Source of the DNA: a virus
Taxonomy: Duplodnaviria; Heunggongvirae; Uroviricota; Caudoviricetes
Reading direction: 5' to 3' (one strand)
Virus record (IMG/VR): IMGVR_UViG_2556921669_000003
Location: 1 to 64,000 of that record
DNA length: 64,000 bases
The notes under the pieces were generated by a model. That model was not told where the DNA came from, did not search any database, and worked only from the letters and a program-made list of their open reading frames with translations. Both the position numbers and the translations under genes were made by a program. Below are positions 37,167 to 52,422 of the stretch, one piece after another; within the stretch, counting starts at the first letter, position 1; each line of letters starts with the position of its first letter.

Positions 37167-37826
37167 ATGACCATTCTCACTGAGGGCCGCCACGCCGGCG
37201 AATTCATCCTGTCCGAGGGCGACGCGGGTTACAGCCGCGACAACCTCAAGATCGCGGCGGAGCAGACCGTCGAACCCGGCACGGTTCTCGCCGCCAAGGT
37301 TGTTCTGGCCGACGCCACTTCGGCAGCCTCCGCTGCAGCCGGCAACACGGCATCGTCTGGCACGATTGCCATGGACGCCACCCCGCTGACCTCCGCCGCA
37401 AAGAACGGCCGCTACGTTGGTGTCGCTTCCGCCGCCACCAAGGTCGACTGGACCGATCCAGACGGTGTGCAGATCGGCGTGTCGACGCACGGCTCGCTGT
37501 TCAATAAGGGCGGCATCCGCTTCACCATCACGGCTGGCGGCACACCGAACGTCGTTGGCGACACCTTCTACGTCGACGTCGGCGTCGAACCAGGCGACCT
37601 GCAGTACGTGGTCTACGACCAGGATGGTACGGACGGTTCGCAGGTGGCCAAGGCTATCGCGATCAGCGGCGTGACCACTGGCGTCGGTGCTACCGCAAAG
37701 GTCGCGGGCATCACGCGCATGGCGCAGGTCAAGGGCGCTGCTCTTGCTTGGCCGGCGGACATCACGGCGGCCGAAAAGGCGCTTGGTGTTAGCCAGCTTG
37801 CGGCCCAGGGCATCATCGTCCGCTAA
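37167..37826 (+). CDS. head decoration protein (gpD-like) candidate
   Basis: Position between protease and capsid gene; Ala/Gly/Thr-rich with a gpD-like C-terminus. Confidence 0.4.
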   Translation: MTILTEGRHAGEFILSEGDAGYSRDNLKIAAEQTVEPGTVLAAKVVLADATSAASAAAGNTASSGTIAMDATPLTSAAKNGRYVGVASAATKVDWTDPDGVQIGVSTHGSLFNKGGIRFTITAGGTPNVVGDTFYVDVGVEPGDLQYVVYDQDGTDGSQVAKAIAISGVTTGVGATAKVAGITRMAQVKGAALAWPADITAAEKALGVSQLAAQGIIVR

Positions 37827-37896: not shown

Positions 37897-38295
37897 ATGA
37901 CTATGCTCAATATCTTCAAGGATGACGCGTTCAGCCTCACTTCGCTGACCGACTCCATCAACGAGATCGAGTACCGCTCGAGCCGAATTCAGGAGTTGGG
38001 CCTTTTCGAGGAAAAGGCAGTTGCCACGACCACGATTGCGATCGAGCGCATCGGCGACAAGATCCAGCTCGTTCCCCCGGCACCTCGTGGCGGTAAGGGT
38101 GACGTGAAGGAAAAGCAGAAGGCAACTGCCAAGCCCTTCGCGATTCCCCACTTTCCTCGCGAATGGTCCGTGTTGGCCGATGAAGTTCAGAACGTCCGCG
38201 CATTCGGCTCCGAGTCTGAAGTCGAAACGGTCATGTCCGTTGTCCTTGACAAGATCATGGACAACATGGCCGACATCGATGTGACGCATGAGTAT
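37897..38295 (+). pseudogene. major capsid protein (lambda gpE family), 5' portion (aa 1-133), interrupted by the insertion
   Basis: N-terminal similarity to lambda E stops at ...DIDVTHEY; the ORF then reads through AT-rich foreign sequence (..SGVSLKYRKKPRIYNN..). Confidence 0.75.
38284..38295. repeat. attL core: ACGCATGAGTAT (direct repeat, in frame T-H-E-Y)
   Basis: Identical 12-mer at 51772..51783, each at the break point of the capsid reading frame. Confidence 0.6.
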
Positions 38296-38465
38296 TCTGG
38301 GGTTAGCCTCAAATATAGAAAAAAACCACGAATATACAACAACTTAGCTCGGCGCAAGTCGGGCTATTTTGTTGCCCGACGGGCAACAACCTCCCCGAAC
38401 AAAAACAATGACTTACGGAAAGTCCGGGCAAACCCGCGCGACTTTCTTGCGACAAGGATTGCAGC

Positions 38466-38666
38466 ATGAGCACCAACGAAAAGGCTGACCTCCTTTATGG
38501 GGTGGCCAGCATCGCCAAGCACTTGGGCATTACCGAACGTCGAGCGCTCTACCTGAAGGAAAAGGGAAGCATTCCCACCTTCCAGATCGATCGTACCGTC
38601 TGTGCCCGAAAGACCAGCCTCAACGCTTGGCTTGCCGAGCAGGAAGCGAAGGGGAGGGGCGAATGA
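38466..38666 (+). CDS. xis: AlpA-family excisionase / DNA-binding regulator
   Basis: 66 aa; LLYGVASIAKHLGITERRALYLKEKGSIPTF is a typical AlpA/Xis winged HTH; sits about 170 nt inside the left junction after arm-like repeats (TTGTTGCCCG-A-CGGGCAACAA). Confidence 0.7.
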   Translation: MSTNEKADLLYGVASIAKHLGITERRALYLKEKGSIPTFQIDRTVCARKTSLNAWLAEQEAKGRGE

Positions 38667-38950
38667 CGAGGGGCCGCACCAAGGAAGCGCAGGACGCCTT
38701 CATTCAGAAGTTGCTTCACCCCGAAGCCGCCCCGGTGGAAGCCGACATTCCGCAACCGGATCCCGCGCCGCAAGAGGACGAGGAAGGCACGGATTATGAC
38801 CTGACCTTTGAGCAGATGAGCGTTGACCAGCTAAACGCGGTCCTCGCATGGAACGAAGGTGACGCCCAGATGACCTTGGACTTCCTTGCTGAGTTTCGCC
38901 CGTATGTGGAGGCCCGTCGCCGCGGCGAGCCCGTGAGGTGGCAGGAATGA
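38663..38950 (+). CDS. hypothetical protein (95 aa)
   Basis: ATGA overlap with the xis stop; acidic. Confidence 0.4.
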   Translation: MTRGRTKEAQDAFIQKLLHPEAAPVEADIPQPDPAPQEDEEGTDYDLTFEQMSVDQLNAVLAWNEGDAQMTLDFLAEFRPYVEARRRGEPVRWQE

Positions 38951-39153
38951 ATGCCATGGAGCGCATCTTGGCCGCCATGGCGGAAGGCCGGAGGAACGAC
39001 CCACCACATGAAGAGCTAAGTCTGCTGGACGCGCTTCGCTGCATGCTCCCGGCGGCGGAAGCGGATGCGGCGGAATCGCAAGGCCAACTTGATTTCTTGC
39101 GCGCGGAAATCGCCAAACTTGAGGCGGCGAAAGAGGAATCGGAGATGACGTGA
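38947..39153 (+). CDS. hypothetical protein (68 aa)
   Basis: ATGA overlap. Confidence 0.4.
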   Translation: MNAMERILAAMAEGRRNDPPHEELSLLDALRCMLPAAEADAAESQGQLDFLRAEIAKLEAAKEESEMT

Positions 39154-40394
39154 CATACCAAGAAGGTTCACGGGAGGAGTATGAGGCACACCTCGCTTCA
39201 ATTAGCGATGCGGAATGGAAGCGCCGCACTCAGGACGCCGTATGGTTTTCCAAAGACCCGCCCCGCCTTGGACCGGACCCGCCGCTGACCTTCCACAAGA
39301 ACTTCACGGCAATCCAGCCCAAACGGTATGTGGTGGGCGACTTCCTCGCGGAAGGCGAGGTGTCATGTTTCTTCGGTGAGCCCGGCGCGACTAAGGGCAC
39401 CATTGCGGTGGACATTGCCTGCCACGTCGCGGCCGGTCTGCCTTGGATGGGCCGCACGGCAGGGGGGCACCTTGACCCTTGGGAGAGGAAGGCGCTGGGC
39501 AAGGAGAGTATGCCGGCGGGCGTGCTCTATATCGCGCTCGAGCGCTCTACCCAGGTACAGCGCCGCGTTGAAGCGTTCACGGATGAGCACGGAATTCAGG
39601 AACCACTTGACCTTGCTATATGGTCCGGTCCGCTCGATCTAGTTGGTAGCGAAAGAGACGACATCCTCTCCGCCGTCTACGCGCATGAGCGAGCGCAGGA
39701 GGAGGACGAGGAAGGCGAGGGTAGCTACCGCGAAGTGCGACTCGTGGTGATTGACACCCTTGCCCGCGCCTTCGGCTCCGGTTCGGATAGCGGCGGCGAA
39801 GAGACGGCGGCGGTGGCGAGAAAGTTTGAGCGCGTTCTCCGGTTCCGTCCTGACCTGCATATCTTGGTGGTGCACCATACCCCGATAGGTGATGACTCCC
39901 GCCTTCGCGGCCACGGCAACCTGCTTGCCGCCTTTGACCAGACGGTGCGGGTACGCAAGCACAAGGTAGGTTCCACCGCCACGGTGATGAAGGACAACGA
40001 CACGGCGGAAGAGGGCAAAGCCCGGTTCGCCTATGCGCTCAAGAGTCGCGTCATCCACGTTGCCAAGGACGGCAAGGAAACCACCGCGCCTGTTGTGGTG
40101 CCGCTCCCGGCCGAGGCCGTCAAGCACGCCATGCCGAAGGTCAGCGTGAAGGCGGCGGGACCGAAGGCCAGCAAGAGCGAGCAACCGCTCCTAGATGCTC
40201 TTGAGGGGTTGGGTGGCTCTGCCACCGAAGCGGACTGGCGAGTGGCGTTTGATGCCGCAAGGCAGGATGGCCTATCACCAAGCGCTCACCGAAAGCGCTG
40301 GTCCGTCGGCCGGCCCGCCCTAGAGGCGAAGGGGCTGGTCCAAAAGGATTCCGAAGGGCGTTACCGCGTTACCGTTACCAACGTTACGGAATAA
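39150..40394 (+). CDS. RepA-like / AAA_25 replication initiator-helicase loader of the inserted element
   Basis: GEVSCFFGEPGATKGTIAVDIACHVAAGLPWMG parallels the helper PrimPol C-domain GEFTTISGLPGTGKSVVTTDLACHIAAGMDWHG; C-terminal wHTH-like region; GTGA overlap. Confidence 0.7.
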   Translation: MTYQEGSREEYEAHLASISDAEWKRRTQDAVWFSKDPPRLGPDPPLTFHKNFTAIQPKRYVVGDFLAEGEVSCFFGEPGATKGTIAVDIACHVAAGLPWMGRTAGGHLDPWERKALGKESMPAGVLYIALERSTQVQRRVEAFTDEHGIQEPLDLAIWSGPLDLVGSERDDILSAVYAHERAQEEDEEGEGSYREVRLVVIDTLARAFGSGSDSGGEETAAVARKFERVLRFRPDLHILVVHHTPIGDDSRLRGHGNLLAAFDQTVRVRKHKVGSTATVMKDNDTAEEGKARFAYALKSRVIHVAKDGKETTAPVVVPLPAEAVKHAMPKVSVKAAGPKASKSEQPLLDALEGLGGSATEADWRVAFDAARQDGLSPSAHRKRWSVGRPALEAKGLVQKDSEGRYRVTVTNVTE

Positions 40395-40510
40395 GAATGG
40401 TAACGCTTTTGGTAACGTAACGTTTTCAGACGGGGTTAGGGCGCACAGCGTTACCAACGTTACCGTTACTACCCCCCTCTTTAGAGGGGGAGTAAGTAAC
40501 GTAACGCTTG
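40360..40510. repeat. satellite origin: about 10 GGTAACG/CGTTACC iterons plus the palindrome CCCCCCTCTTTAGAGGGGG
   Basis: Iterons begin within the last codons of repA (..RVTVTNVTE) and continue for about 120 nt with no ORF. Confidence 0.5.
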
Positions 40511-40550
40511 GTGCGCTTCGCCCCGTGAAAAATCCGTAAGGGTGAAGATC

Positions 40551-40862
40551 ATGGAAATTGATGATGTAGAGCTCGCTGTCTCTCGGGCTTTGCGGGATGG
40601 CGCAGGAAACAAACCCGCGCAAGAATTCGGATTTGCTATCCAGCCCTTCCGGGGCACGCGCCTATGTGGCGGCGAGTTTGAGGACGCCGTGGCCGTTGTC
40701 GGCGTGCACTTCAACGGCAAGGGTGACTACAGCTTCATTTGTGTCGCGTCGGACGGCGTGGGCGAGACCTACGTCACTCAGGAGGAGAACCTTCTGGGCG
40801 TGGATCTTCCTTACGGCTTTCCACCGGCTCCGGCGCAGGACGCCAACCCGTCTGATCCATAG
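40551..40862 (+). CDS. hypothetical protein (103 aa)
   Basis: Follows the ori; AGGGTG SD. Confidence 0.4.
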   Translation: MEIDDVELAVSRALRDGAGNKPAQEFGFAIQPFRGTRLCGGEFEDAVAVVGVHFNGKGDYSFICVASDGVGETYVTQEENLLGVDLPYGFPPAPAQDANPSDP

Positions 40863-41016
40863 CCGCCATGAGCAAGGCGAGGAGGCGAGGAACGTCTCGC
40901 GTCCCGCTCTCAAACTCCGAAATGCGGACCTTGCTTCCGTACCCCAGAAGCGCCGCAAGCGCCTCCTGCTTATAGCCGAGGCGCTTGCGGATTGCTTTGA
41001 ACTCTTCGCTGGTCAT
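40774..41016 (-). CDS. XRE-family HTH transcriptional regulator
   Basis: LGYKQEALAALLGYGSKVRISEFESGTRDVP helix-turn-helix. Confidence 0.6.
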   Translation of the reverse strand: MTSEEFKAIRKRLGYKQEALAALLGYGSKVRISEFESGTRDVPRLLALLMAAMDQTGWRPAPEPVESRKEDPRPEGSPPE

Positions 41017-41231
41017 CGTGCGGCCCGCAGGTAATCCATGCCATAAACGTCAATGGTCCAATCGCCGTCTTCGGCGACTTCCATGGCCTGCATTACCAGC
41101 TTCCAAGCCTTTTCGCGAGAGACTTCGCGGTACACGTCACCGTCGACCTTCACGTCAAATGCATAGACCTTGCACTGGCCGTCGAAGCGGCGGGTGATGT
41201 TGACCTTGATGTCTGCGGTGCCGGTGTTCAT
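41013..41231 (-). CDS. small hypothetical protein (72 aa) co-transcribed with the XRE regulator
   Basis: GGGAGAG SD; ATGA overlap with the XRE gene; its promoter carries the GTAACGCATTTGCGTAAC palindrome. Confidence 0.45.
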   Translation of the reverse strand: MNTGTADIKVNITRRFDGQCKVYAFDVKVDGDVYREVSREKAWKLVMQAMEVAEDGDWTIDVYGMDYLRAAR

Positions 41232-41259
41232 TTCGCTCTCCCTTGCCGTTGGATTATTA

Positions 41260-41277
41260 GTAACGCATTTGCGTAAC
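41260..41277. promoter_or_regulatory. 18-bp palindromic operator GTAACGCATTTGCGTAAC in the spacer of the regulator-operon promoter (-35 TTGCTA)
   Basis: Reverse-complement copy (20/21 identity) of the site in the integrase promoter at 50358..50375. Confidence 0.45.
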
Positions 41278-41395
41278 TTTAGCAAGGGCGAATTTCAAGA
41301 ATTCGGTGCCGCATTCGTCTCCTGCGGACGGTGCCGGGCCGGGGAGTCGCGTCTCCTCTTTCTCCTCGGCCACCCCTTCAACAATAGGAAATCAC

Positions 41396-42337
41396 ATGAA
41401 CCACGTTGACCAAGAAAGGCTTGAGGCGCACGCCAAGGGCCTCCCTCTCCAAACCCGGCGCAAGCTGCCCGCGCTCATTGACGCCTCCGTTGACGCCATG
41501 ACGGCGTTCGGGGGTGCCAATGACACTGCCCGCGAAGCTCATACGGCTTACATTGATTCGCGGCTCCGCTTTATCAACCGCTGGAACGTCGAAGAGGCAC
41601 AAGCTCCTACCGGCGAACCAATCTTCACCTACGTGCCTGCCCGAAGGAACGAAGTGCCTGAGTTTCGCTTTGAAAGCGAACGTGAAGGCGTCATCGAGAA
41701 ATGGCAGGTCTGGCAGCGCCGAAAGCGTGCGCGGGACAAGGCAGACGTTGTTCGCGCGGGCAACGAATATCTTCAGGATATCCTGGGCTGGCTCCGCGAC
41801 AATCCCGGCCCCTTCAAGTCGGCCGCCATGCCGCCGGCGAAACTCGGTAAAGGCCAGACGCACCACCAGGCAGTGGAAGATATCCGCGAACGTCTGATCC
41901 GCATTGACGAGAAAGTCGCGGCCACAGAGTACGCTCCGACGCCGGCCGAAGACCTGATAGCCCGCGCCCATGCTGCCGTTGATGACTTAGCCCACCGGGG
42001 CAAGGTCCATATCTATACCAACAACCGGGACGGCTCGCCGGTGAACCTTTCGGGGAGCGGCAGGCTGACAGGCGTGACGGGCATTCTGCCAGAAACTCTG
42101 GTCTGGCTCCTGGCCGATGAAATCAAGGCCAGCGTTTCCGCCAAGATCCGCGAAGTCGCGTCCAAGGACGCAATCAGCGACTTTGACCGCGCTGCCGAAC
42201 TGTCCGCCCTAGCCGCTGACAAGCTTGCTTTGGAGCGGCTGGAAGAAGCCCACATTCTCGCGGCCGCCGAAATCGGCCAAATCATCCACCGACGCCGTGA
42301 AGCCAATCCGCGCGCAATTCTGGAACTTGAAGCATGA
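41396..42337 (+). CDS. hypothetical protein (313 aa) upstream of the satellite protease
   Basis: Start ATG after AGGAAATCAC; ATGA overlap with the downstream protease gene. Confidence 0.45.
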   Translation: MNHVDQERLEAHAKGLPLQTRRKLPALIDASVDAMTAFGGANDTAREAHTAYIDSRLRFINRWNVEEAQAPTGEPIFTYVPARRNEVPEFRFESEREGVIEKWQVWQRRKRARDKADVVRAGNEYLQDILGWLRDNPGPFKSAAMPPAKLGKGQTHHQAVEDIRERLIRIDEKVAATEYAPTPAEDLIARAHAAVDDLAHRGKVHIYTNNRDGSPVNLSGSGRLTGVTGILPETLVWLLADEIKASVSAKIREVASKDAISDFDRAAELSALAADKLALERLEEAHILAAAEIGQIIHRRREANPRAILELEA

Positions 42338-42957
42338 TCCAACTCGACATGATGGGCACGGTGGGCGAAGATTTCGACGCTGCAACCGTCAAGTTTGCCC
42401 TTGCGCAAGGTGGTGACGTGCATGTCACCCTCAATAGCGGGGGCGGGTTCGCGGCAGAGGGCGCCGCTATCTATGCCTTGTTGGACGCGCACCCCGGCCG
42501 GGTTCGCGTGGATATTGTTGGCATTGCGGCCAGTGCTGCAAGTCTCATTGCCATGGCGGGCGACAGCATCGTCATGTTTGATGGCGCGGTCATGATGATT
42601 CATGATCCGCTCAATATCACCATTGGCAACTCGGCGGCCCACGCCAAGACCATCGAGGAACTGGAAAGCTATGCGAAGGCATATGCGGCGATCTATGCCA
42701 AGAGAGCGAAGATCAGTCCTGCTGCGGCGCGAGCAATCATGCAGGCAGAAACTTGGTATGACGGCGAAGCCGCCGTGAAAGCCGGGTTCGCAACTGCCAA
42801 GTCTTCGAACGCTTCTGCCGCTTGGGCGAAGTTTGACTATGACAAATACCAAAAGGGTGCGGCGGCTGTAGCCGGTGCGAGCAGCACGCGTGCATCATGG
42901 AAACAGACAATCATGCGCCGCAAGGCATATGAAGACGCATTCGTAATCAGGGGATAA
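42334..42957 (+). CDS. S49/ClpP-like prohead-protease paralog (no scaffold domain)
   Basis: LNSGGGFAAEGAAIYALLDAHPGRVRVDIVGIAASAASLIAMAGDSIVMFDGAVMMIHDPLNITIGNSAAHAKTIEELESYAKAYAAIYAKRA is about 60% identical to helper protease 36085 residues 40-150. Confidence 0.7.
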   Translation: MIQLDMMGTVGEDFDAATVKFALAQGGDVHVTLNSGGGFAAEGAAIYALLDAHPGRVRVDIVGIAASAASLIAMAGDSIVMFDGAVMMIHDPLNITIGNSAAHAKTIEELESYAKAYAAIYAKRAKISPAAARAIMQAETWYDGEAAVKAGFATAKSSNASAAWAKFDYDKYQKGAAAVAGASSTRASWKQTIMRRKAYEDAFVIRG

Positions 42958-42962
42958 ATCAC

Positions 42963-43250
42963 ATGGCTACCACTCGACTATTCAATCTGCCCGCTGATGC
43001 ATGGACGCTTGTTGCGTCCGGTGCGGCCAGCATAACCATCAAGCCTATCACCAACGTGGCTATCCGTGCCTATGTCGGTCGTACCCTGCTGGAGGATACC
43101 AATGAGGCGCTTACCCTTGGCGGCCTGGGGGCTGTGCTAACGCTGGATAACCCGTCCGACGCTGACCATGTGTACCTCAAGCCAGCAGAGCGCACAGAGG
43201 TAGAGGTAGGCGTGGGCATGGCTTATCGCGCCTTGCTGCCGGGGGCCTGA
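42963..43250 (+). CDS. hypothetical protein (95 aa), possibly capsid-associated
   Basis: Directly after the protease paralog. Confidence 0.4.
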   Translation: MATTRLFNLPADAWTLVASGAASITIKPITNVAIRAYVGRTLLEDTNEALTLGGLGAVLTLDNPSDADHVYLKPAERTEVEVGVGMAYRALLPGA

Positions 43251-43383
43251 CCCGCCCCTGGCATAGGGACCGTTTGGCCTGTCCAAACCGATAGCGGGCG
43301 CGACACCCTCGCCGGTCGGACTTTATCTAGTTCAAAAACAGGGTAACAGAATGCGGACACCCCCGAAAATGGAGGCGAAACCC

Positions 43384-43578
43384 ATGGTTGCATACTTCGT
43401 CAACCAAGCGGCCTACGCCGAACACCAGAAGGTTTCAAGAAAGACTGTAACCATCTGGAAACAAAAGGGATACCTTGTTTTGAATTCGGCAGGACGAGTC
43501 AATGTCGCCGCATCAGATAAGCGTCTTTTGGACGCCTTCGGCGAACGTCGCCGCGTGTTACCCCCTGTCCGCAGGTAA
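43384..43578 (+). CDS. TerS N-terminal (HTH DNA-binding) domain paralog, stand-alone 64 aa
   Basis: VNQAAYAEHQKVSRKTVTIWKQKGYLVLNSAGRVNVAASDKRL vs helper TerS MNQAGFAAHRRVSRKTVTGWKQRGLLVLLPDGQVDVAASDRAL; GGAGG SD. Confidence 0.5.
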   Translation: MVAYFVNQAAYAEHQKVSRKTVTIWKQKGYLVLNSAGRVNVAASDKRLLDAFGERRRVLPPVRR

Positions 43579-43618
43579 CACCAACTGCGGACACCCCCAT
43601 CACCTTCACCATCCACGA

Positions 43619-43640
43619 CCCGCCGAAGCGCGGGTTTTTT
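43619..43640 (+). terminator. rho-independent terminator CCCGC-cgaagc-GCGGG plus TTTTTTGTTG
   Basis: GC stem followed by a T6 run, after the TerS-domain paralog. Confidence 0.5.
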
Positions 43641-43661
43641 GTTGTCCAGAAAGGACCACCC

Positions 43662-43928
43662 ATGACCGTAACCTACACCCTCCGCACTCCCGTTGAACAT
43701 GCTGGCACGACCTACCAGGAACTGACATTCCGCGAGGCCACGACGGGCGACATGATTGTTGCTGACAAGTTCGACGGCCCGAACGGCAAGCTCATCGCCA
43801 CCTTCGCCGCCATGTCTGACGTGCCGCTGCCCGCCTTCAAGAAGGTGAGCATGCGCGACTTCAACAAGATCGTCCTGGCGGTGGCTGACCTCATGGGGGA
43901 GGACGAAGCGGCGGATGGCGCGGCCTAG
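43662..43928 (+). CDS. tail assembly chaperone (lambda gpG-like)
   Basis: 88-aa acidic protein immediately upstream of the tape measure gene. Confidence 0.55.
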   Translation: MTVTYTLRTPVEHAGTTYQELTFREATTGDMIVADKFDGPNGKLIATFAAMSDVPLPAFKKVSMRDFNKIVLAVADLMGEDEAADGAA

Positions 43929-44121
43929 TCGCGGTCATCGCCTCAGAGCTCAATACCCCGATTCACGTCATTGAGCAGTGGCCGCCTGACAAGACCCTCG
44001 ACTGGTATCAGGCGGCCATTGAACTCATTGCGCTGAAGAACGGGCAGCATCCCCCCGAGCCATCTGAGGCTCACACGGCCATGAGCGCCACCATAAAAGC
44101 GAAAAAGGAAGCGCGGCATGA
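43928..44121 (+). CDS. gpT-like extension, probably expressed as a G-T fusion by -1 frameshift
   Basis: The -1 frame after the G stop is open and encodes ...VIEQWPPDKTLDWYQAAIELIALKNGQ..., typical of tail assembly protein T; slippery site not confidently identified. Confidence 0.35.
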
Positions 44122-46559
44122 GTAAAAGGTCCGCAGAACTCGTCCTGTCTCTCACCGATAAGGTGAGCGGCAGGGCGAAAGGCGTCCATGCCGCCCTTGC
44201 CAAACTCCAGATGATGGCGGCCCGTAATGCAGCCGCCATGGACGCCATGCAGAGCCGCATGGTGACTGCTGTCGCTATGGGCTACACCCTGGCCCAGAGC
44301 CTGAGCGCGCCTATCAAGTCGGCCGTGGCGTTCGAATCAAAGCTGGAGGATATCGGCCAGAAGGCGGACATTCCCCAGAAGCGCCTTGCGGAATTGGGGA
44401 AGCAGCTTCGGATTGTCGGGCGGGAGACGAACCAGGCCGGATCCGAAATGGCGAAAGGGATGGATACCCTTCTCGGTCTTGGTGCCTCTGAGGGTGACGC
44501 GCTGAAGCTCTTGCCCAATATCGGCAAGGCGGCTTTTGCCTACAAGGCCAGCATTGAGGACCTGAGCGCCGCCGGCTATTCCACCCTGAGCAATCTGAAG
44601 GTTCCGGCAGATCAATTCGGCAAGTCCCTAGACGCCATGGCTACGGCCGGAAAAATGGGCGCCTTCGAACTCAAGGACATGGCCCAGTATTTTCCTGCCC
44701 TTGGCGCGGGATATCAAGCACTTGGTCAGACCGGCGTGCCGGCCGTTGCCGACCTTTCGGCAGCCCTGCAGGTGGTTCGCGGGGCGACAGGTGATTCCGC
44801 CTCGGCCGCGACAAACCTCGGCAACGTCCTGCAGAAGATCAACTCGCCCCAGACAGTCAAAGCCTTCAAGAAACTGGGCGTGAACCTCGAGCGCGAGCTG
44901 AAGAAGCGTGCCGAAGCTGGCATGAGTCCAATCGAGGCCATCGCGGACATCACCAACAAGACCCTGAAGGGTGACCTCAGCAAGCTTGGCAATCTTTTCG
45001 AGGATTCACAGGTCCAGCAGGGCCTTCGTCCGCTCATCCAGAACATGGAGGAATACCGTCGTATCCGGGCGGCGGCCATGGCAGCGTCTGGCACGGTTGA
45101 GTCCGACTTCCAGCGCCGTATGAAGACATCGGAAGGAGCGCTTCTGCGGATGCAGGCCGCCCTGGAGAACGTATCTGCCTCCATCGGTGCAGCCCTGTTG
45201 CCCGCCCTCAATCAGGTGATCGACAAGGTTGCGCCCGTTGTCACCGGGATTGCTGACCTTGCGGAACGGTATCCCGAAGCCACCTCCGCAATCGTCGCCG
45301 CAACGGCTGCTGTGGTGGGCTTCAACGTTGCAATGACGGCCACCCGGTTCGCCTTCCTGTGGACGAAGGGCGGTATCCTGTCCATGGTGATTCCGGTGGC
45401 GCGGTTGGCCACCCACTTCGGCACGGCGGCGACGGAAGCCGTTGCGCTTCAGCGGTCCCTCAAGGCGCTCTCCACGTCGAAAAACGCCGGCATGGCCGCC
45501 ATGCTTGACGGGGGTCTCAACGGCGCGGGCCTAACCAAGCTTGAAACGGTTCGTACCGCTCTTGGTGGCATGGCCGCCGCCGTGCCGGGCGTTACCGCAA
45601 TCGGCGGGGCTCTCAGTACCGTTGGTGCTGCACTGGCCACCATCTCCGCGCCGGCATGGTTCGCCATTGGCGCGGGTGTTGCTCTTGTTGCCGGTGCTGG
45701 CCTTGCGCTCTGGCAAAACTGGGATCGTATCAGCAGCATAGTGACAGGCGTTGCTCGCGCGATCGGCGAGGAACTTCAGCCTGCCATCGACTTTCTATGG
45801 CCGGTGCTCGATCCCTTCGCGCAGTCGTTCTCCGCATTGGGGGATGCTGCAAAATGGGCGTGGGAGCAGTTCAAAGAGGCGGCTAGCTGGCTCGGCTCGT
45901 TGTTCCAGTCGAATGACCTGACGCGCCAGCACCAAATGGTCATCGAGGACAACGCCTATGCCGTAACCCGCAAGCTTATCGACGGCTTTAAAGCGCTGAA
46001 TTCTGCGATGTTCCAGGCCGGCGTGGACATGATTCAGGGCATCATTGATGGCGTCGTGGCCAAGGCGGGCGAACTTCTGGCTTGGTTTACCTCCCTGCCG
46101 GACAAAATCAGGGCGGCGATCGGCAGGATCGATCTCAGTAACATCATCTCGTGGCCAAAAATGCCGACATGGCTTGGAGGCGGCGAAGAAGCTCCTGCAC
46201 AAAAGCCAGCCGTCGACGGAGCTCGCGCCAAGGGCGGCCCAGTCCGGAGCGGTGGGCTCTATGTCGTTGGCGAGCGCGGGCCGGAGTTGTTCAGTCCCGG
46301 CAGCGGCGGGATGATCAGCCCGAACGACGCCTACCGGGCAGCAGCAGCCGGTGCGTCCAGTGGTGGCGGTTCCCGTTCTGGCGGCGGCGGAAACACTTTC
46401 AACATCCAGCCAGTAATTCACATCCCCGTAAATGCACCAGTTGGCGGCGATCCCGACGCATTCGCGCGAAACGTTTCCGACAAGGTGGGCGACTACGTCA
46501 TACGGCAGCTTGAGGGCTCCTTTGGATTTGAGCTGGCAGACAACATGACCTACAGGTGA
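44118..46559 (+). CDS. tail tape measure protein (813 aa)
   Basis: Long Ala/Gly/Leu-rich alpha-helical protein with TMP core motifs, after the G/GT chaperones. Confidence 0.85.
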   Translation: MSKRSAELVLSLTDKVSGRAKGVHAALAKLQMMAARNAAAMDAMQSRMVTAVAMGYTLAQSLSAPIKSAVAFESKLEDIGQKADIPQKRLAELGKQLRIVGRETNQAGSEMAKGMDTLLGLGASEGDALKLLPNIGKAAFAYKASIEDLSAAGYSTLSNLKVPADQFGKSLDAMATAGKMGAFELKDMAQYFPALGAGYQALGQTGVPAVADLSAALQVVRGATGDSASAATNLGNVLQKINSPQTVKAFKKLGVNLERELKKRAEAGMSPIEAIADITNKTLKGDLSKLGNLFEDSQVQQGLRPLIQNMEEYRRIRAAAMAASGTVESDFQRRMKTSEGALLRMQAALENVSASIGAALLPALNQVIDKVAPVVTGIADLAERYPEATSAIVAATAAVVGFNVAMTATRFAFLWTKGGILSMVIPVARLATHFGTAATEAVALQRSLKALSTSKNAGMAAMLDGGLNGAGLTKLETVRTALGGMAAAVPGVTAIGGALSTVGAALATISAPAWFAIGAGVALVAGAGLALWQNWDRISSIVTGVARAIGEELQPAIDFLWPVLDPFAQSFSALGDAAKWAWEQFKEAASWLGSLFQSNDLTRQHQMVIEDNAYAVTRKLIDGFKALNSAMFQAGVDMIQGIIDGVVAKAGELLAWFTSLPDKIRAAIGRIDLSNIISWPKMPTWLGGGEEAPAQKPAVDGARAKGGPVRSGGLYVVGERGPELFSPGSGGMISPNDAYRAAAAGASSGGGSRSGGGGNTFNIQPVIHIPVNAPVGGDPDAFARNVSDKVGDYVIRQLEGSFGFELADNMTYR

Positions 46560-47104
46560 GGATCAACATGGCAGGAACACTAGATGGGCTTCTCCGAAGC
46601 ATGGGGGAACGCATTCAGGATCTGGAGCGGCGGAACAATAATCGCCGCCGCACCGGCACCATTGCGGAAGGCCCTGATGAAAAGGGCCGGTATCGCGTCA
46701 ACATCTCAAAACAGGCCAGGGCGGATCAGCCGTATCTGACGCCATGGATACGCCCTAAGACCGTCGGGGCCGGCGCGGTCAAGATGGACGTGGTTTACGC
46801 CATTGGAGAGCAGGTCGATATTGTCTCAGAGAACGGGGATCTTACAGATGCCCGTATCGATTTCGGGATGTATTCCGACGACAACCCGCGCGAGAATGGC
46901 GAGAACGTGCCGCTCCGGCTGAAGGTAGGCGACTCCATCATCGAGGTGAGCGGGGGGGGCATCACCCTGAAGGCCACCAAGATCGTCCTAGACGGCACCG
47001 TGCACCTTGGAGGCGAAGGTGGGCAACTCCTCCACCGTAAGGGGGACGCAGATAGCGACGGCGATACGGCAGTCGGTTCGGCCAGCCGAGTCTACGCGGT
47101 GTAA
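46556..47104 (+). CDS. gpV-like baseplate spike/hub protein paralog
   Basis: N-terminal OB-fold region similar to helper gpV (53889); C-terminal 35 aa [41 protein letters not shown] is nearly identical to the helper copy. Confidence 0.65.
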   Translation: MRINMAGTLDGLLRSMGERIQDLERRNNNRRRTGTIAEGPDEKGRYRVNISKQARADQPYLTPWIRPKTVGAGAVKMDVVYAIGEQVDIVSENGDLTDARIDFGMYSDDNPRENGENVPLRLKVGDSIIEVSGGGITLKATKIVLDGTVHLGGEGGQLLHRKGDADSDGDTAVGSASRVYAV

Positions 47105-47106
47105 TC

Positions 47107-47754
47107 ATGCTCAAAATCGACATCAAGGGCGACGGTCTCGCCCTCTTCACCAAGGCGACGGCGGCCCTCAAGTCGCCCCGCAAGGCCGGCCAAGTCTTCA
47201 GCCGCGCCATCAATGAAACCGGACGGGTTGGGGGCACGGCTGCCGCCCGCGCTCTTGCCGTACAAACCGGACTGCCCCGCAAGACCACACTGAAGGCCGT
47301 GCGCCGCAACGTGTCGAAGTCGACTCCCGCCACCCTCTCCTATGTGATCCACGGACAGGGTGGCGACGTGAGCCTGAAATACTTCAAGCCGCGCGAAACC
47401 AGGGCCGGTGTAAGCGCCGCCCCGCGCGGCGTGCGGCAGGTATTTCCCGGTTTGTTTCAGAGGGCTGGCTGGTGGCCGAAACGTGTCGACAAGCCTGCCT
47501 GGAACAGGCAGATCTTCGTCCGCATTGGCGATGGCCACAGTTACAATCTCGCCAAGTCAAACCCGTTTGTGAAGTCCGGTCAGCAGAAGCGTGAGCGCGT
47601 CGGCACCAAGTTCGCCAAGCAAAAATCAGGCGTATTTATCCCAGTCGAGATGCTTCGCGGGGAGACGGCCAAGGTTTGGGATCAGACGTCCGCGCGCCTC
47701 GAGCCTCGGGTGATCCACCATATCAACCGGATGACGGGCGGGTTGTTCACATGA
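47107..47754 (+). CDS. gpZ-like tail completion protein paralog
   Basis: Collinear weak similarity to helper 30869 and lambda Z. Confidence 0.45.
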   Translation: MLKIDIKGDGLALFTKATAALKSPRKAGQVFSRAINETGRVGGTAAARALAVQTGLPRKTTLKAVRRNVSKSTPATLSYVIHGQGGDVSLKYFKPRETRAGVSAAPRGVRQVFPGLFQRAGWWPKRVDKPAWNRQIFVRIGDGHSYNLAKSNPFVKSGQQKRERVGTKFAKQKSGVFIPVEMLRGETAKVWDQTSARLEPRVIHHINRMTGGLFT

Positions 47755-47886
47755 TCACGGCAACCTCGGCAACACGGGCAACGGCGTTGCCGAGGTTGCC
47801 GGGCCTGTGCCTAGACCGACGCCGGGGCGTCCGACCCGCATTGGCCCCGTTGGGGCTGGAACAGTCTCTAACCCACCGGGGGTCTC

Positions 47887-48123
47887 ATGATCCGCATAAG
47901 CCACATGAACCCGGCGCGCGGCAGGATCGCCGCAACATTCACGGCAACGGTTGGGGAGCTAGTGCTCCCCGGCTGCGCCTTGATCAGGCGGGACGGCGGC
48001 TTCGGCTTGTCGGTGCCGCGCCTGACTGGCGAAGGCGGGACGCGGCGAGCCCCGCTATCCGATGCAATGGAAGCAGAACTTCTCAGGGTGGCAATAGCCA
48101 CGCACACAACCTCGGAGCAATGA
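47887..48123 (+). CDS. hypothetical protein (78 aa)
   Basis: Follows a perfect 16-bp inverted repeat (about 47757..47800). Confidence 0.35.
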   Translation: MIRISHMNPARGRIAATFTATVGELVLPGCALIRRDGGFGLSVPRLTGEGGTRRAPLSDAMEAELLRVAIATHTTSEQ

Positions 48124-48503
48124 TGACCAAATTCACCATTTCTAATATGAAGCCCTCACATCATGCCGGCAGCACGCTTGCCACCTTTAATGTGCACCTG
48201 CGCGAATTAGGGATTAGCCTGCGCGGGATCACCCTGTCCCGTCCTTCGCACGTCCCCGTGCCTGAGACGCGGCTATACTTCCCTGACCAAAGGAAGGTAA
48301 GCGACACCGCATACTACATCGGTCCCTGTGAACTTCGAACCAGGATCGGCGCCGCTGCTTGTGCCGCTTACACGGCAATGACGGGGGAGCCCGCATCATT
48401 CATTCCGAAAGAGGCAATCGACGACAGCACCGAAGATGAGGCTGCCGGCATGATGCGCTTCATTGGCGCGGAAAACGAAACGCTGCGCAAGGCGGGGATC
48501 TAG
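48120..48503 (+). CDS. hypothetical protein (128 aa)
   Basis: ATGATG start overlapping the upstream stop. Confidence 0.4.
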   Translation: MMTKFTISNMKPSHHAGSTLATFNVHLRELGISLRGITLSRPSHVPVPETRLYFPDQRKVSDTAYYIGPCELRTRIGAAACAAYTAMTGEPASFIPKEAIDDSTEDEAAGMMRFIGAENETLRKAGI

Positions 48504-48512
48504 GAGAACACC

Positions 48513-48848
48513 ATGAACGCAATCGAACGTTGGTCAGCTATCATGGCGCTGCCCGAATACAACGAACAGCTTCATGCTATGGCTGCGCTGCTCTTCAAGG
48601 ATGAGCAGTTGTCGGTAGAGCAGGTGCAAGCAACGCTTGCTGTGGCGAAGCGAAGCGCGCCGGCTGCCAGCAAGGTGGAGACGCCTGAGAGCTATGACGC
48701 CTATAGGGCACGGATGGCGCAGGCCGCTGGCGACGAGCTAGAAATTGCGGGCGCACGACTTAGTGACGGTCGCTCAGCCAAGGACATCTCCACGAAGGCA
48801 CTCTGGGCCAAGGCCATTGCCGAGGTCAATGCGCGCCGCCAACCTTGA
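48513..48848 (+). CDS. hypothetical protein (111 aa)
   Basis: Non-repetitive; its stop lies inside the next operator-promoter copy. Confidence 0.45.
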   Translation: MNAIERWSAIMALPEYNEQLHAMAALLFKDEQLSVEQVQATLAVAKRSAPAASKVETPESYDAYRARMAQAAGDELEIAGARLSDGRSAKDISTKALWAKAIAEVNARRQP

Positions 48849-48873
48849 CAAATTTGTAAAAGGATACTATGCC
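48845..48873 (+). promoter_or_regulatory. operator-promoter copy TTGACAAATTTGTAAAA inside the satellite
   Basis: Exact 17-mer identical to the helper PR operator; followed by the CACCACAAGAGGAGACT module. Confidence 0.45.
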
Positions 48874-48919
48874 TCTTGATGCCGGTGCACCAACCCGGCA
48901 ATCACCACAAGAGGAGACT

Positions 48920-49075
48920 ATGATGACCGACGAACGCAGAATGTCTGCCCTTAAGCTTGTCATTGAGGCGCGGCGGCTTTGGGGCAACACGGTTGCTCAA
49001 GAGCTATGGCGGCACTTAGGACTGCCAGCGGTTCCAGCCATGCTGTTGCCACCATGTGCGGTGGAGAAGGACTAA
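48920..49075 (+). CDS. small hypothetical protein (51 aa) under the helper-type operator
   Basis: MMTDERRMSALKLVIEARRLWGNTVAQELWRHLGL... Confidence 0.4.
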   Translation: MMTDERRMSALKLVIEARRLWGNTVAQELWRHLGLPAVPAMLLPPCAVEKD

Positions 49076-49083
49076 CGGGAGAA

Positions 49084-49106
49084 CCCGGCTTCGGCCGGGT
49101 TTTTTA
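49084..49106. terminator. bidirectional rho-independent terminator CCCGGC-ttcg-GCCGGG plus TTTTTT
   Basis: Located between convergent genes 48920 (+) and 49104..49409 (-). Confidence 0.45.
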
Positions 49107-49409
49107 TTGTTTGGTCTTGTATTCCGGACGGGCCTTCGCCGGCGGCTTGAAGGAAGCGCAAGCCTCGTCTACGGATGGCGCGCGGGCGTACTGCTCCCTG
49201 ATATAGGTCCGGTCCTTCGCCACCAACTGGGGGTCTGATCCGTTGATGGTCATGCTCGCCACCATGACCCCCAGGGAATGCTCCTGGCTGAAGTCGCAAT
49301 GAGCGACCATCCATTCAAGGGCAAGCGCGCCTTGCAGGTGCGTGAACTCCTCCGCATGCGCGGGGGCGGCGAGGGCAAGGGCGGCTGCTAGCGGAAGAGC
49401 GATTCTCAT
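49104..49409 (-). CDS. secreted small protein (signal peptide MRIALPLAAALALAAPAHA)
   Basis: GGGAGGA SD; Sec-type signal peptide plus an 80-aa mature domain with 2 Cys; opposite strand to its neighbours. Confidence 0.5.
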   Translation of the reverse strand: MRIALPLAAALALAAPAHAEEFTHLQGALALEWMVAHCDFSQEHSLGVMVASMTINGSDPQLVAKDRTYIREQYARAPSVDEACASFKPPAKARPEYKTKQ

Positions 49410-49901
49410 ATTTGTATCCTCCCTAAAATTAGTGACGCGCGAACCGCCCGTCCTTGCCGGGACGGGTGTTGCGTTTGTGAACGAATAGGGTGAATATGTT
49501 CGCGGAGCTTCAGAACTCCCGCATCGGTCCCTTGCCGGGGATTGCGATGCTAACCGCGATAGGCGTGCGCTGCGGCTTGCCGGCCGAGGTACGCTGAAAA
49601 CTTGACGAGACAACGCCGTTGTCCCGACCGGCTCACTATTGCCGGGAAGGCCACGGTCGTCAAGAGGTAACTCTTGGCCTTGCATAAGCCCGAAAGGGTG
49701 AAGGTCGTGGCGCATGTCTTCGCGGGCATGTTCTGAACTTCCCGGCGCCAGCCTGCTGCTGGCTTGCCCTTCACGTTCGCCTTCAGAAGCGCCGTGACGG
49801 AAGTAACCGCGAGCAAAATCTCTATGCACAAGAGCCTATATTTTGAAAGCCCACCTCCCGCATTCCAGCGTGAGGAGGAAGAGCCTTCCGACGTTCCAAG
49901 A

Positions 49902-50261
49902 ATGGCGGAGCTATCCAGCCGGTTGCGCACCTCCATGAGGGACTACGCGCCAATGCCCGACGCTGCCATGAACGACATGAACCGCGCCCACACCGCCGTG
50001 ATCCATGCGCTCATAGCCGCGCCTATTTCCAAATCCCGTGACGTGGCATGCAAGCTTCGCGTCCTAGCTGATCTTGTTGAGGGGGACGAAGGCGGCGTGC
50101 TGGTCCATGAGGAGGACATGCTTGTGGCGTGCCTCCATGACCTTGGGGCCTTGCGTATCCGTGACGCGCTTACGCTCGGCTTTGGCTGGGTTGAGAGCAT
50201 CTATGGTGATCTCCTTCAACTTCGTGGCGGCGGGTTTAGCGAACTCGACGTAGCGGGATAG
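49902..50261 (+). CDS. hypothetical protein (about 120 aa)
   Basis: Internal Met of ORF 49764; the upstream part lacks coding character. Confidence 0.4.
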   Translation: MAELSSRLRTSMRDYAPMPDAAMNDMNRAHTAVIHALIAAPISKSRDVACKLRVLADLVEGDEGGVLVHEEDMLVACLHDLGALRIRDALTLGFGWVESIYGDLLQLRGGGFSELDVAG

Positions 50262-50357
50262 CTCCGCCGGTGCCGGTGCTCGCGTAGTGCCGGCCAAGAG
50301 AGGGCCGTCCGCTTCATATGGAGGCGGGCGGTCTCTTTCGTTTTAGGGGTTGCAAAA

Positions 50358-50375
50358 GTTACGCAAATGCGTAAC
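50358..50375. promoter_or_regulatory. 18-bp palindromic operator GTTACGCAAATGCGTAAC in the integrase promoter spacer (-35 TTGCAA)
   Basis: Same architecture and sequence as the site at 41260..41277 in inverted orientation. Confidence 0.45.
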
Positions 50376-50401
50376 ATGGCGTTATCAGATTTCGATAGGA
50401 G

Positions 50402-51751
50402 ATGATCATGGCTAGTGTAAGAAAGCGGTTCCCGGATGACCCGAAGTCGCCTTGGGTTTGCGACTATGTAGATCAGTCGGGCACGCGCCGACTAAAGACG
50501 TTCAAGATGAAGAAGCTCGCCGACGCTTTTCGGATGAAAATGGAAGCGGAGATATCTGAGGGCATTCACACGTCAGACAGAGAAAGCGTGACGGTCGCAC
50601 AGGCCGCCGACGCCTTTATCAGGGACTGCGAACGGCGACACCACATAGGTGACGAGATGTCCGGTTCGTCCCTGGCCGCTTACCGTGGCGCCGTAAAGGT
50701 CGTGAAGCTTCGGTTCGGCAGCATGCTGGTGAAAAACCTGACAACCATTGCCGTGCAGGCGTGGGTGGACGAGTTGTCGGTGCAAAGGAAGCGCAACACC
50801 CTCCACAGTAGGTATCGCGCGCTTCGCATGATATTGACGTTTTCGGTGCGCAAGGGATGGATCAAGCGAAGCGTGCTCAAGGACGAACCGGCCCGTCTGC
50901 CGGCACTCGGCAATGAGCGGGTCCGAATTCCAACGAAGGCTGATATCGTCAAGGTCATCGACGCTACGCGAAAGGAAAAAAAGCCCGGCCGACATTACAA
51001 CACCGTCCTAGTCAACCGCGCGATTGTGCTGCTTGGCTTTCACTGCGGAATGCGTATCGGTGAGATAGCAGGACTCCAGTGGGAGAACGTCGATTTTACC
51101 AATGACACCGTTGCCGTGCGTCACAGTCATTCGCGCGAAGACGGGTTGAAGGCGCCGAAGTCATCTGCGGGGAATCGAGATATTCCCATGTCTCCCGATG
51201 TGCGGGCGGCACTCATGGACTTGTGGCAATACTGGACATTGAGGGCGCGTGTCGTGAAACTTGACGCGGGCGGCTACTCCAAGGGCAAGTGCACGCCGAA
51301 GGCGACATTCACCCGTCGCCGCAATCAGTTGGAACGGGCGCTTGCGCAGCCGTTCTCGGCGCACGAAGTTGATGAACCTCTTGAAGGTTTCGTCATGCGT
51401 TCAATTGCCGCCAACGGCCGGCACGGCTTTGAGCATTATGACCCGGCCGGGGTGGCAAACCTGCAAGCGTCCAACTGGCACACAATCATGTCGGACGCCG
51501 GCCTTCTAGACGACGACGGAAAACCTCTGTTCTCTTCGCACAAGATGCGACATGCGGCAGTCAGCCTCATGATTGAAAGCGGGCTTCCCGCACTCAACCT
51601 AAAGACGGTTATCGGTCACAAGAATATCAACACCACGATGTCCGTTTACGCGCATCTATTCCCTGATGATCAGCGCTCCAAGATCGCCATAGAAGGGATT
51701 GCGGCGGCCTTGGACGCGACAAGGGTGCGACAAAATAACGTAAGTATCTGA
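50402..51751 (+). CDS. int: tyrosine site-specific integrase
   Basis: C-terminal catalytic region with the R...HxxR...Y pattern (..HKMRHAAVSLM...MSVYAHL); 20 nt inside the right junction. Confidence 0.85.
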   Translation: MIMASVRKRFPDDPKSPWVCDYVDQSGTRRLKTFKMKKLADAFRMKMEAEISEGIHTSDRESVTVAQAADAFIRDCERRHHIGDEMSGSSLAAYRGAVKVVKLRFGSMLVKNLTTIAVQAWVDELSVQRKRNTLHSRYRALRMILTFSVRKGWIKRSVLKDEPARLPALGNERVRIPTKADIVKVIDATRKEKKPGRHYNTVLVNRAIVLLGFHCGMRIGEIAGLQWENVDFTNDTVAVRHSHSREDGLKAPKSSAGNRDIPMSPDVRAALMDLWQYWTLRARVVKLDAGGYSKGKCTPKATFTRRRNQLERALAQPFSAHEVDEPLEGFVMRSIAANGRHGFEHYDPAGVANLQASNWHTIMSDAGLLDDDGKPLFSSHKMRHAAVSLMIESGLPALNLKTVIGHKNINTTMSVYAHLFPDDQRSKIAIEGIAAALDATRVRQNNVSI

Positions 51752-51771
51752 ATTACTTAGCTGTCAGAATA

Positions 51772-51783
51772 ACGCATGAGTAT
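51772..51783. repeat. attR core: ACGCATGAGTAT
   Basis: Second copy of the 12-mer; in frame with the downstream capsid C-terminal reading frame. Confidence 0.6.
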
Positions 51784-52422
51784 CACCGTCTCGGCGCCAT
51801 TCAGGGCCTCGTGACCTACGCTGACGGGACGACGCTTGATCTTTTCAGCGAATTCGCTGTCTCGCAGGCCGCAGAACTCGACTTCGATCTCGACAACGCC
51901 AACCCAGCGGAAGGCGTACTTCGCAAGGCTTGCTCCAATGTCGTCCTCAGCACGCGCAACGCGATGGGCGGCTCGCCGTTTGCTCGCGTTCACGCATTTG
52001 TGGGTGACACGTTCTTTGACCAGTTGATTTCCCATAAGGAAGTCCGCGAGACCTACAAGGGGTGGTCGGAAGCCGCCATCCTTCGTGATAGCTACGTCAG
52101 TCCTGATCGAGGCGGCAACGACATCTTCTCCTTCGGTGGCATCGCGTTTGAGCGGTACGGCGCAGCCACCTCTGTAGGCGACGGCGCCAAGATCGGCATA
52201 GAGGCTACCAAGGCGAAGTTCTTCCCGGTCGGCGCCCGTGGCATGTTCAAGACGTATTACGCGCCGGCTCCGTACATGGAGACGGTGAACACGCTGGGTC
52301 GTCCGTTCTACGCCAAGCAGGCTCTGCTTGACCTGGACAAGGGCGTCTACGGCGAAACGCAGATGAACGCTCTGGACATCTGCACACGTCCGAAGGCGCT
52401 GATGCGCGCCAAGAACACCTAA
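51784..52422 (+). pseudogene. major capsid protein (lambda gpE family), 3' portion (about 212 aa)
   Basis: Collinear with the C-terminal half of lambda E; reading frame continuous through the 12-mer; fusion with 37897..38295 gives a 345-aa protein (lambda E is 341 aa). Confidence 0.75.

Follow-up and report, generated by a model that had tools for sequence, protein, structure and literature searches.

The window analysed here, a stretch of 64,000 nucleotides (positions 1 to 64,000 of IMG/VR virus record IMGVR_UViG_2556921669_000003), is a prophage region in which the XRE, integrase and 313-aa proteins each have a 100% identical counterpart in Shinella sp. DD12. Shinella is a genus in the Rhizobiaceae (Alphaproteobacteria). 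The prophage is interrupted by a 13.5-kb element, and we focused on two 18-bp dyads within it. One precedes the gene for a tyrosine integrase (int), and the other precedes an oppositely oriented operon that encodes a regulator with an XRE-type helix-turn-helix (HTH). As judged from the sequences and their relatives, both dyads are probably operators of a single element-encoded repressor, the 80-aa XRE (Cro/CI-like) protein of 40774-41016.

The dyads at the XRE-operon and int promoters

The genes and sites at the two promoters are the following.

40774-41016, minus strand: XRE/Cro-CI-type HTH gene (80 aa) with Pfam and PHROG matches, the proposed repressor
41013-41231, minus strand: first gene of the XRE operon, encoding a 72-aa acidic protein
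41257-41262, minus strand: candidate -10 hexamer TACTAA of the XRE operon, overlapping the dyad
41260-41277, minus strand: proposed operator of the XRE-operon promoter, GTTACGCAAATGCGTTAC, with an imperfect right arm
41280-41285, minus strand: -35-like hexamer TTGCTA of the XRE operon
50302-50344, plus strand: terminator-like hairpin (14-pair stem) and T-run, directly upstream of the int promoter
50350-50355, plus strand: -35-like hexamer TTGCAA of the int promoter
50358-50375, plus strand: proposed operator of the int promoter, GTTACGCAAATGCGTAAC, an 8+2+8 dyad
50372-50377, plus strand: candidate -10 hexamer TAACAT of the int promoter (4/6 to TATAAT), overlapping the right arm of the dyad
50408-51751, plus strand: int, tyrosine integrase (447 aa; Pfam PF00589, E 8.4e-18; PHROG integrase, E 3.4e-54), with a ribosome-binding site (RBS) AGGAG at 50397-50401

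On the plus strand at 50358-50375, GTTACGCAAATGCGTAAC forms a perfect dyad of two 8-nt arms flanking a central AA, and is present just as an earlier, sequence-only reading of this DNA had described it. At 41260-41277 the plus strand reads GTAACGCATTTGCGTAAC and the minus strand its reverse complement, GTTACGCAAATGCGTTAC, which matches the int site at 17/18 bases. The XRE-side site is thus a near copy of the int site in the opposite orientation, but not the exact one that had been reported. The block common to both sites, TTGC[A/T]AAAGTTACGCAAATGCGT[A/T]AC, is 26 nt long (24/26 identical); at 50350-50375 (+) and 41285-41260 (-), it takes in the -35-like hexamer and an AA linker, and it is the longest inverted repeat detected in 37.8-52.5 kb. 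The two operator sites are the sole matches in the 64 kb at three or fewer mismatches; shuffled sequence yielded a mean of 0.01 matches, and 0/100 shuffles reached the observed count.

Each dyad begins 2 nt past the -35-like hexamer and sits between the two hexamers, as previously described, but it does not fill the 17-nt spacer: at that spacing it covers only positions 3-17 and extends over the first 3 nt of the -10. The -10 candidates are weak, with TAACAT (16-nt spacer) or AACATG (17-nt) for int and TACTAA (17-nt) for the XRE operon. The int dyad lies 32 nt before the ATG at 50408, and the XRE-side dyad lies 28 nt before the ATG of the small open reading frame (ORF) at 41231-41229, with an RBS in between.

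The two genes of the XRE operon have the coordinates first assigned to them and overlap by ATGA, so that the XRE gene is translationally coupled to the 72-aa gene upstream. The XRE protein meets the curated Pfam thresholds by narrow margins over residues 5-45 (HTH_31, 27.5 bits with a cut-off of 27; HTH_3, 25.6 bits with a cut-off of 23) and matches PHROG_14076, 'transcriptional regulator', with an E value of 3.3e-14. A profile of its family weakly matched HipB, P22 C2, 434 repressor, C.BclI and Aca3 in the PDB (E 0.006-0.8). HipB, P22 C2, 434 repressor and C.BclI are dimeric palindrome-binding repressors, characterised members of the matched XRE-type HTH families. No cleavage, peptidase or sensor domain was recognised in the XRE protein, and no ImmA-like partner was found. 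The 72-aa protein (pI 4.95) has no match in Pfam, PHROG, NCBIfam or a PDB profile search.

No paralogue of the XRE protein was found elsewhere in the window. A helper-encoded regulator as the user of the sites was rejected, as the rest of the window holds neither a further copy of the site nor an XRE paralogue. CtrA, LexA or FNR-type boxes were dismissed on inspection, as half-site spacing and sequence did not fit. An exact search of IMG/VR with the 16-mer AAGTTACGCAAATGCG returned 12 matches, 0 of them in a related element; one is in a low-GC phage, before an HTH gene that is unrelated, and another lies before a Ner-like gene. As these matches fall outside related elements, the 16-mer motif alone is uninformative in a very large database.

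Conservation of the dyads in related loci

Among the closest homologues of the integrase, two syntenic relatives of the element were found, L098 and L096/L097 (L numbers denote the loci compared). The integrase and XRE proteins of L098 are 40% and 83% identical to those of the window, respectively, and those of L096/L097 are 61% and 56% identical. L098 carries TTGTAAAAGTTACGCAAATGCGTATC before int and TTGCAAAAGTTACGCAAATGCGGTAC before its operon of small ORF and XRE gene, with the same palindrome as in the window. L096 carries TTGCAAAAGTAACGGAAGACCGTTAC before an operon of an alpA-like gene and int, and TTGCCGTTGTAACGGCAATCCGTTAC before a monocistronic XRE gene. The int dyads of both relatives occupy the same place as that of the window. 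In 3/3 elements (window, L098 and L096), the best match to the XRE-promoter dyad elsewhere in the locus is the dyad of the int-operon promoter. In all six promoters the dyad begins exactly 2 nt past a TTGNNN hexamer, and an RBS and a start codon follow closely. The int-promoter hexamer TTGCAA aligns with TTGTAA in L098 and TTGCAA in L096, and TTGCTA of the XRE operon aligns with TTGCAA and TTGCCG, respectively. A terminator-like hairpin with a T-run likewise precedes the int promoter in 3/3 elements; as it is conserved, int needs its own promoter.

At both L096 sites, the arms read GTAACGG-N4-CCGTTAC, compared with GTTACGC/GCGTAAC in the window. The two L096 sites differ from each other in their -35 hexamers, linkers and central 4 nt, which means that the change in L096 is limited to the dyad arms and common to both sites. 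L096 also has the more diverged XRE protein of the two relatives. Selection on the contacts made by a single dimeric protein would give such a pattern of arm changes. The same comparison bears on whether the 26-nt block could instead be a duplicated promoter cassette, alike by descent, that is bound by something else (a host factor, or the 72-aa protein alone or together with XRE) or that leaves the int copy unregulated. The four window and L098 sites would fit such a cassette, as all four point the same way relative to their gene, with the central AAAT on its coding strand, and have the -35 hexamer and the AA linker in common. However, the L096 promoters differ in -35, linker and centre and yet have identical arms, which selection on the dyad predicts and simple common descent does not. 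Co-transcription of the 72-aa gene with the XRE gene in most homologous operons would suit another binder. Against this, the dyad stays in L096, which has no 72-aa gene, and in L002, which has another gene in its place, the XRE gene is never missing, and the helper-prophage part of the window holds no further copy of the site. We regard a cassette or another binder as improbable.

The association of the dyad with the XRE gene extends to complete, unrelated prophages of Rhizobiaceae (L001, L002 and L060-L064; a set of seven loci with five distinct sequences of the XRE operon). Their XRE homologues are 63-76% identical to that of the window over the first 60 residues and always lie between the replication and packaging modules, divergent from the late operon. 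Homologues of the 72-aa gene precede the XRE gene in L001 and L060-L064, as they do in L098. In the prophage promoters, TTGAC[A/C/G], which aligns with the -35-like hexamer of the window, is followed after 2 nt by a TWACG-N6-CGTWA dyad that reaches into a TAGTTT-like -10. The proximal dyad of L063 and L064 is one base off this pattern. The position of the candidate -10 TACTAA matches that of TAGTTT/TAGCTT in L060-L064. A second dyad lies about 33 bp upstream in all of the prophage homologues except L002. The dyad persists in L002, whose operon begins with an unrelated gene, and in L096, where the small gene is absent.

At the integrase promoters of these prophages no copy of the dyad was found, and another HTH gene adjoins int. 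Likewise, the integrase relatives in L099, L110, L111 and L125-L127, loci where no XRE homologue was found, have a hairpin and an RBS upstream of int and no hexamer-plus-dyad. As both comparison sets are without an int-side dyad, the operator at the int promoter is specific to elements that combine this integrase type with the XRE module.

These prophages also raise the question of whether the bicistron is primarily a toxin-antitoxin or anti-defence (acr-aca-like) cassette, in which the HTH protein shuts off its own strong promoter and the int copy was co-opted secondarily in this lineage of satellites. The architecture would fit this: the small gene in first position varies, the small HTH gene behind it is conserved, the two overlap by ATGA, and the prophage homologues have two inverted repeats in the promoter. 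So would the restriction of the module's operators to its own promoter in complete prophages, with another HTH gene beside int. In addition, the best NCBIfam matches of the XRE protein, all below cut-off, are MqsA-family and HipB/Y4mF-family antitoxin HTHs, and HipB and Aca3 are among its weak PDB matches. However, no toxin or anti-defence family was matched by the 72-aa protein, whose acidity also sets it apart from most small toxins. The XRE protein lacks the MqsA zinc-binding domain and stays below every curated cut-off in that database: it scores 29.2 bits against 61.8 for TIGR03830 (MqsA), through the HTH part alone (profile positions 65-118), and 21.3 bits against 71.65 for TIGR03070 (HipB/Y4mF-type). 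L096, moreover, is without the first gene and yet keeps both operators. We consider it rather unlikely that the bicistron is primarily such a cassette. It is possible that this was the original function of the module, which is compatible with XRE binding to both sites and differs from repression of int by XRE only in the purpose given to the module. Assignment of the XRE protein to the MqsA or HipB antitoxin family itself was rejected on the sub-cut-off scores, the missing zinc-binding domain and a partner that matches no toxin family.

The palindromes could also act as nucleic-acid hairpins rather than as protein sites, either as a stem-loop in the 5' untranslated region that affects mRNA stability or translation, or as a cruciform. 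Symmetric arm changes such as those in L096 would keep a stem too. However, eight distinct promoter sequences have the dyad placed between the conserved -35-like hexamer and the -10 region, a position that should be upstream of the transcription start. The terminator immediately before the int promoter leaves no space for an upstream start, three of the four window and L098 sites have uncompensated mismatches in the right arm, and folding of the XRE-promoter region is not stronger than that of shuffled sequence (z = -0.59). An RNA hairpin is thus disfavoured, with the qualification that folding alone is insufficient to exclude it; overall, we see very little chance that the palindromes are hairpins and not binding sites.

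Several observations weigh against repression of both promoters by XRE. The paired sites occur in three elements only, and as the L096 lineage alone shows the concerted change, that change is a single evolutionary event. Over the four window and L098 sites the right arm varies (TAAC, TTAC, TATC and GTAC), and the left arm shows no compensating change. Recognition-helix residues and half-site bases follow no simple code in the eight aligned XRE sequences. Each site, if transcribed, would form a stem of seven pairs with a 4-nt loop. The promoter hexamers are weak, and a simple sigma-70 consensus scan called no promoter at either site, the listed hexamers included. AlphaFold models were of low confidence, with a predicted local distance difference test (pLDDT) score of 61 for the XRE monomer, at which neither the dimer nor docking to DNA can be assessed, and of 63 for the 72-aa protein.

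Two further features adjoin the XRE operon. A second small dyad, CGAATTTCAAGAATTCG, lies at 41288-41304, just past the -35 of the XRE promoter, where the prophage homologues hold their upstream second operator; its sequence is unrelated to that of the main operator, and it is partially conserved in L098 and L096. At the other end, a conserved 106-aa ORF (40542-40862, +) is convergent with the XRE gene and shares 89 nt with the 3' end of that gene, an arrangement found likewise in L098 and L096. The C-terminal tail of the window XRE protein lies in this overlap; it is poorly conserved and 15-18 residues longer than in the prophage homologues of 62-65 aa.

The element and its helper prophage

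The element and the helper genes next to it comprise the following features.

32217-34190, rightward: large terminase, a lambda-type head gene of the helper
34187-35857, rightward: portal, a lambda-type head gene of the helper
36085-37149, rightward: ClpP-type protease, a lambda-type head gene of the helper
37167-37826, rightward: gpD, a lambda-type head gene, with the major capsid gene E next to it
38284-38295: attL core ACGCATGAGTAT, a 12-bp direct repeat
38466-38666, plus strand: AlpA/Xis-like HTH_17 gene at the left end of the element (weak Pfam HTH_17 match, E 0.005; PHROG_18541, E 5e-12)
41396-42337, plus strand: gene for the 313-aa protein, first of the divergent late/morphogenesis operon (start set by alignment)
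51772-51783: attR core ACGCATGAGTAT, a 12-bp direct repeat

The capsid gene of the prophage is split: positions 1-122 of Pfam Phage_cap_E are coded from 37897 to about 38300, and positions 132-329 at 51811-52422, with baseplate genes downstream. When 37897-38295 is joined to 51784-52422, the result is an intact 345-aa reading frame for capsid E (Phage_cap_E). As flanks joined at the 12-bp repeat restore the capsid frame, the 13.5 kb between them (about 38296-51783) represents an integrated element. It has the arrangement of a helper-embedded satellite, lodged in the major capsid gene of a Shinella prophage. The repeat flanks and the restored frame support the name 'satellite' that the sequence-only reading had given it.

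From left to right, the element holds the alpA-like gene, an AAA_25 replication gene, GTTACC repeats, the leftward XRE operon, the rightward late operon, a terminator and int. Behind the 313-aa gene follow a ClpP-like head protease, a tail assembly chaperone, a tape measure, and gpV-like and neck-like proteins. The alpA-like, AAA_25, 313-aa, ClpP, tail assembly chaperone, tape measure and int genes are all on the plus strand, the same as the capsid gene; the XRE operon is the sole opposed one among the assigned genes of the element. A Pfam and PHROGs scan recognised no capsid, portal or TerL family among the ORFs of the element that it covered, several of which were without any match. The alpA-like gene is 78% identical to the L096 gene that lies between the palindrome-bearing promoter and int, and in the circular form of the element it would come to lie just downstream of int and attP.

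Several sites in the element recur in its relatives. Immediately 5' of the alpA-like start codon, the motif GCGCGACTTTCTTGCGACAAGGA (a GCGAC direct repeat) is found at 38436-38458 and, in L096, at about 2055-2080. A terminator-like hairpin lies at 38345-38366, between attL and the alpA-like gene. Just past the AAA_25 replication gene, 40358-40515 is densely packed with about 12 GTTACC/GGTAAC repeats, arranged as two groups of opposite orientation, and is probably the replication origin of the element. This cluster is kept in L098, and L096 carries GTAATT repeats in the same place. That the same protein binds these iterons and the operator, on account of their shared GTTAC, was rejected, as the L096 iterons read GTAATT and its operator is still GTAAC/GTTAC. 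In the leader of the 313-aa/ClpP late operon (41336-41376), a hairpin (GGGGAGTCGCGTCTCCTC) followed by a pyrimidine tract and GGCCACCC is near-identical in L098 and L096. It resembles a terminator or regulatory site and could be a point of helper-dependent activation or antitermination.

The closest homologues of the 313-aa protein are 70% identical, a conservation far above that of the integrase. Its family (P0078-P0094; L100-L109) marks 18 clusters of satellite-like elements in Rhizobiales-type genomes (Hoeflea and Mesorhizobium). These elements encode a tape measure, a tail assembly chaperone and, in most cases, a ClpP-like protease, and they adjoin ordinary host genes. As their integrases and regulators differ, the integration and regulation modules are mosaic. 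Scans of viral contigs and of metagenome contigs with an alignment of the 313-aa protein gave no matches.

The integrase is identical to a Shinella sp. DD12 protein annotated 'site-specific integrase'. Among 16 homologues, its catalytic residues H378, R381, H404 and Y414 do not vary, and R216 hardly does. The integrase is rare and only distantly related to the other integrases that the searches recovered, with closest homologues 61% identical and the next about 40%. A scan of genome contigs found no close relative of the integrase, the best matches being short partial segments that are 20-47% identical. A metagenome scan with its alignment returned 80 loci, 0 with an XRE homologue and 0 with a promoter dyad. 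Pfam recognises PF00589 alone and no Arm-DNA-bind_3, a domain present in several other integrases of related loci. The missing match suggests that the integrase belongs to a clade other than that of the P4-related integrase of 11capE, an E. coli satellite compared below. Integrase homologues that are 38-42% identical lie amid phage late genes (L099, 10001-11347; L110, 8579-9871; L111, 2328-3623): that of L099 adjoins a Phage_capsid_4 gene, that of L110 lies between TerL/head-completion genes and portal-protease-capsid genes, and that of L111 directly precedes tail genes. These positions hint that a second lineage of integrases may target the late genes of prophages.

In the helper, a tRNA-Met gene (30776-30851) lies just before the packaging genes, and an Rfam search of the window found tRNA alone. 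The early region of the helper (1-30000) is large and codes for a sliding clamp (DnaN-like), a helicase, a DNA methylase and a Prim-Pol/AAA_25 replicase.

Proposed control of int and comparison with known systems

From the position, pairing and conservation of the two dyads we infer that the sites are promoters and that XRE binds them as a dimer and represses them. Such a dimer, sitting on the dyad, would compete with RNA polymerase and thereby shut the promoter off. At 41260-41277 this would result in negative autoregulation of the bicistron (the 72-aa gene, then XRE), and at 50358-50375 in repression of the integrase, with the terminator insulating int from upstream transcription. In L096, where an AlpA/Xis-like gene shares the palindrome-bearing operon with int, XRE would repress that gene along with int. 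The sequence-only reading had proposed that one dimeric regulator, probably the XRE protein, co-regulates its own operon and integration/excision. The comparison with related loci supports this, with the limit that the excision arm is seen directly in L096 only.

Upon entry into an XRE-free cell, both promoters would fire and produce a burst of integrase. As XRE builds up, int and XRE would be turned down, so that the recombinase would be silent in the integrated element. Repression might be relieved by an anti-repressor, helper-encoded or co-transcribed, or bypassed by late read-through from the helper into the co-oriented element. Such bypassing of control by helper late transcription has been proposed for helper-embedded phage-inducible chromosomal islands (HE-PICIs; PMC10111431). 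As terminator-like hairpins are present at 38345-38366 and 50302-50334, late read-through would need antitermination. More tentatively, we propose a two-layer control in an undescribed alphaproteobacterial lineage of helper-embedded satellites. Here, a non-cleavable XRE protein might lock int (in some relatives alpA and int) off after the entry burst, and excision, which rebuilds the helper capsid gene, might be driven in cis by helper late read-through; we regard this as a possibility with the odds against it.

Among temperate phages and integrative elements it is standard for a self-regulating repressor to act on a recombinase promoter as well; what is unusual here is the setting of the element. 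XRE/Cro-CI immunity repressors such as ICEBs1 ImmR, or lambda CI at PL/PRM, autoregulate and control recombinase promoters. The present system resembles these in having a small HTH protein, dyads that overlap promoter elements and an operator at both its own promoter and that of int (int and xis in L096). It differs in that the protein has only 80 aa, each promoter has one operator and not an array, and int lies 9 kb away, outside the repressor operon. The MqsA, HipB and Aca autorepressors are similar in that a small gene comes first and the HTH gene second in a two-gene operon, with inverted repeats overlapping the promoter. Unlike these, the XRE protein has sub-cut-off scores, no MqsA zinc domain and a partner that is not a recognisable toxin or Acr, and its operator is duplicated at an integrase promoter.

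Stl of the Staphylococcus aureus pathogenicity islands (SaPI) is the master repressor of a phage-inducible chromosomal island; it is a much larger protein and acts at the stl-str divergent region. As in SaPI, the satellite has a putative HTH repressor at a divergent control region that would silence the island, presumably until a helper-derived signal arrives. Here, however, there is a second putative operator at the distant int promoter. Two 18-bp sites and one 80-aa protein would make up a defined, easily testable switch in an element that, on excision, restores its helper's capsid gene, and the timing of satellite excision relative to helper induction thereby becomes open to experiment.

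The closest counterpart in insertion site is the HE-PICI 11capE of E. coli, which splits the lambda-type major capsid gene E with no replacement gene fragment (Tommasini, Mageeney and Williams 2023, PMC10111431). Like 11capE, the Shinella element interrupts gene E with no replacement fragment and carries int, an AlpA-like gene, a replication gene with origin-like repeats, and captured late genes. The insertion lies around Phage_cap_E position 122-132 here, compared with position 80 in 11capE, and unlike in HE-PICIs, int is at the other, downstream end, separated from alpA by attP. The survey set of HE-PICIs was limited to Enterobacterales, and that study contains no XRE repressor or operator analysis, with the word 'operator' occurring 0 times (PMC10111431). 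The present element thus documents a helper-embedded satellite outside the Enterobacterales, in a soil and rhizosphere lineage, and its control module would be an XRE repressor in place of the Bro-type proteins and RNA repressors described for enterobacterial PICIs.

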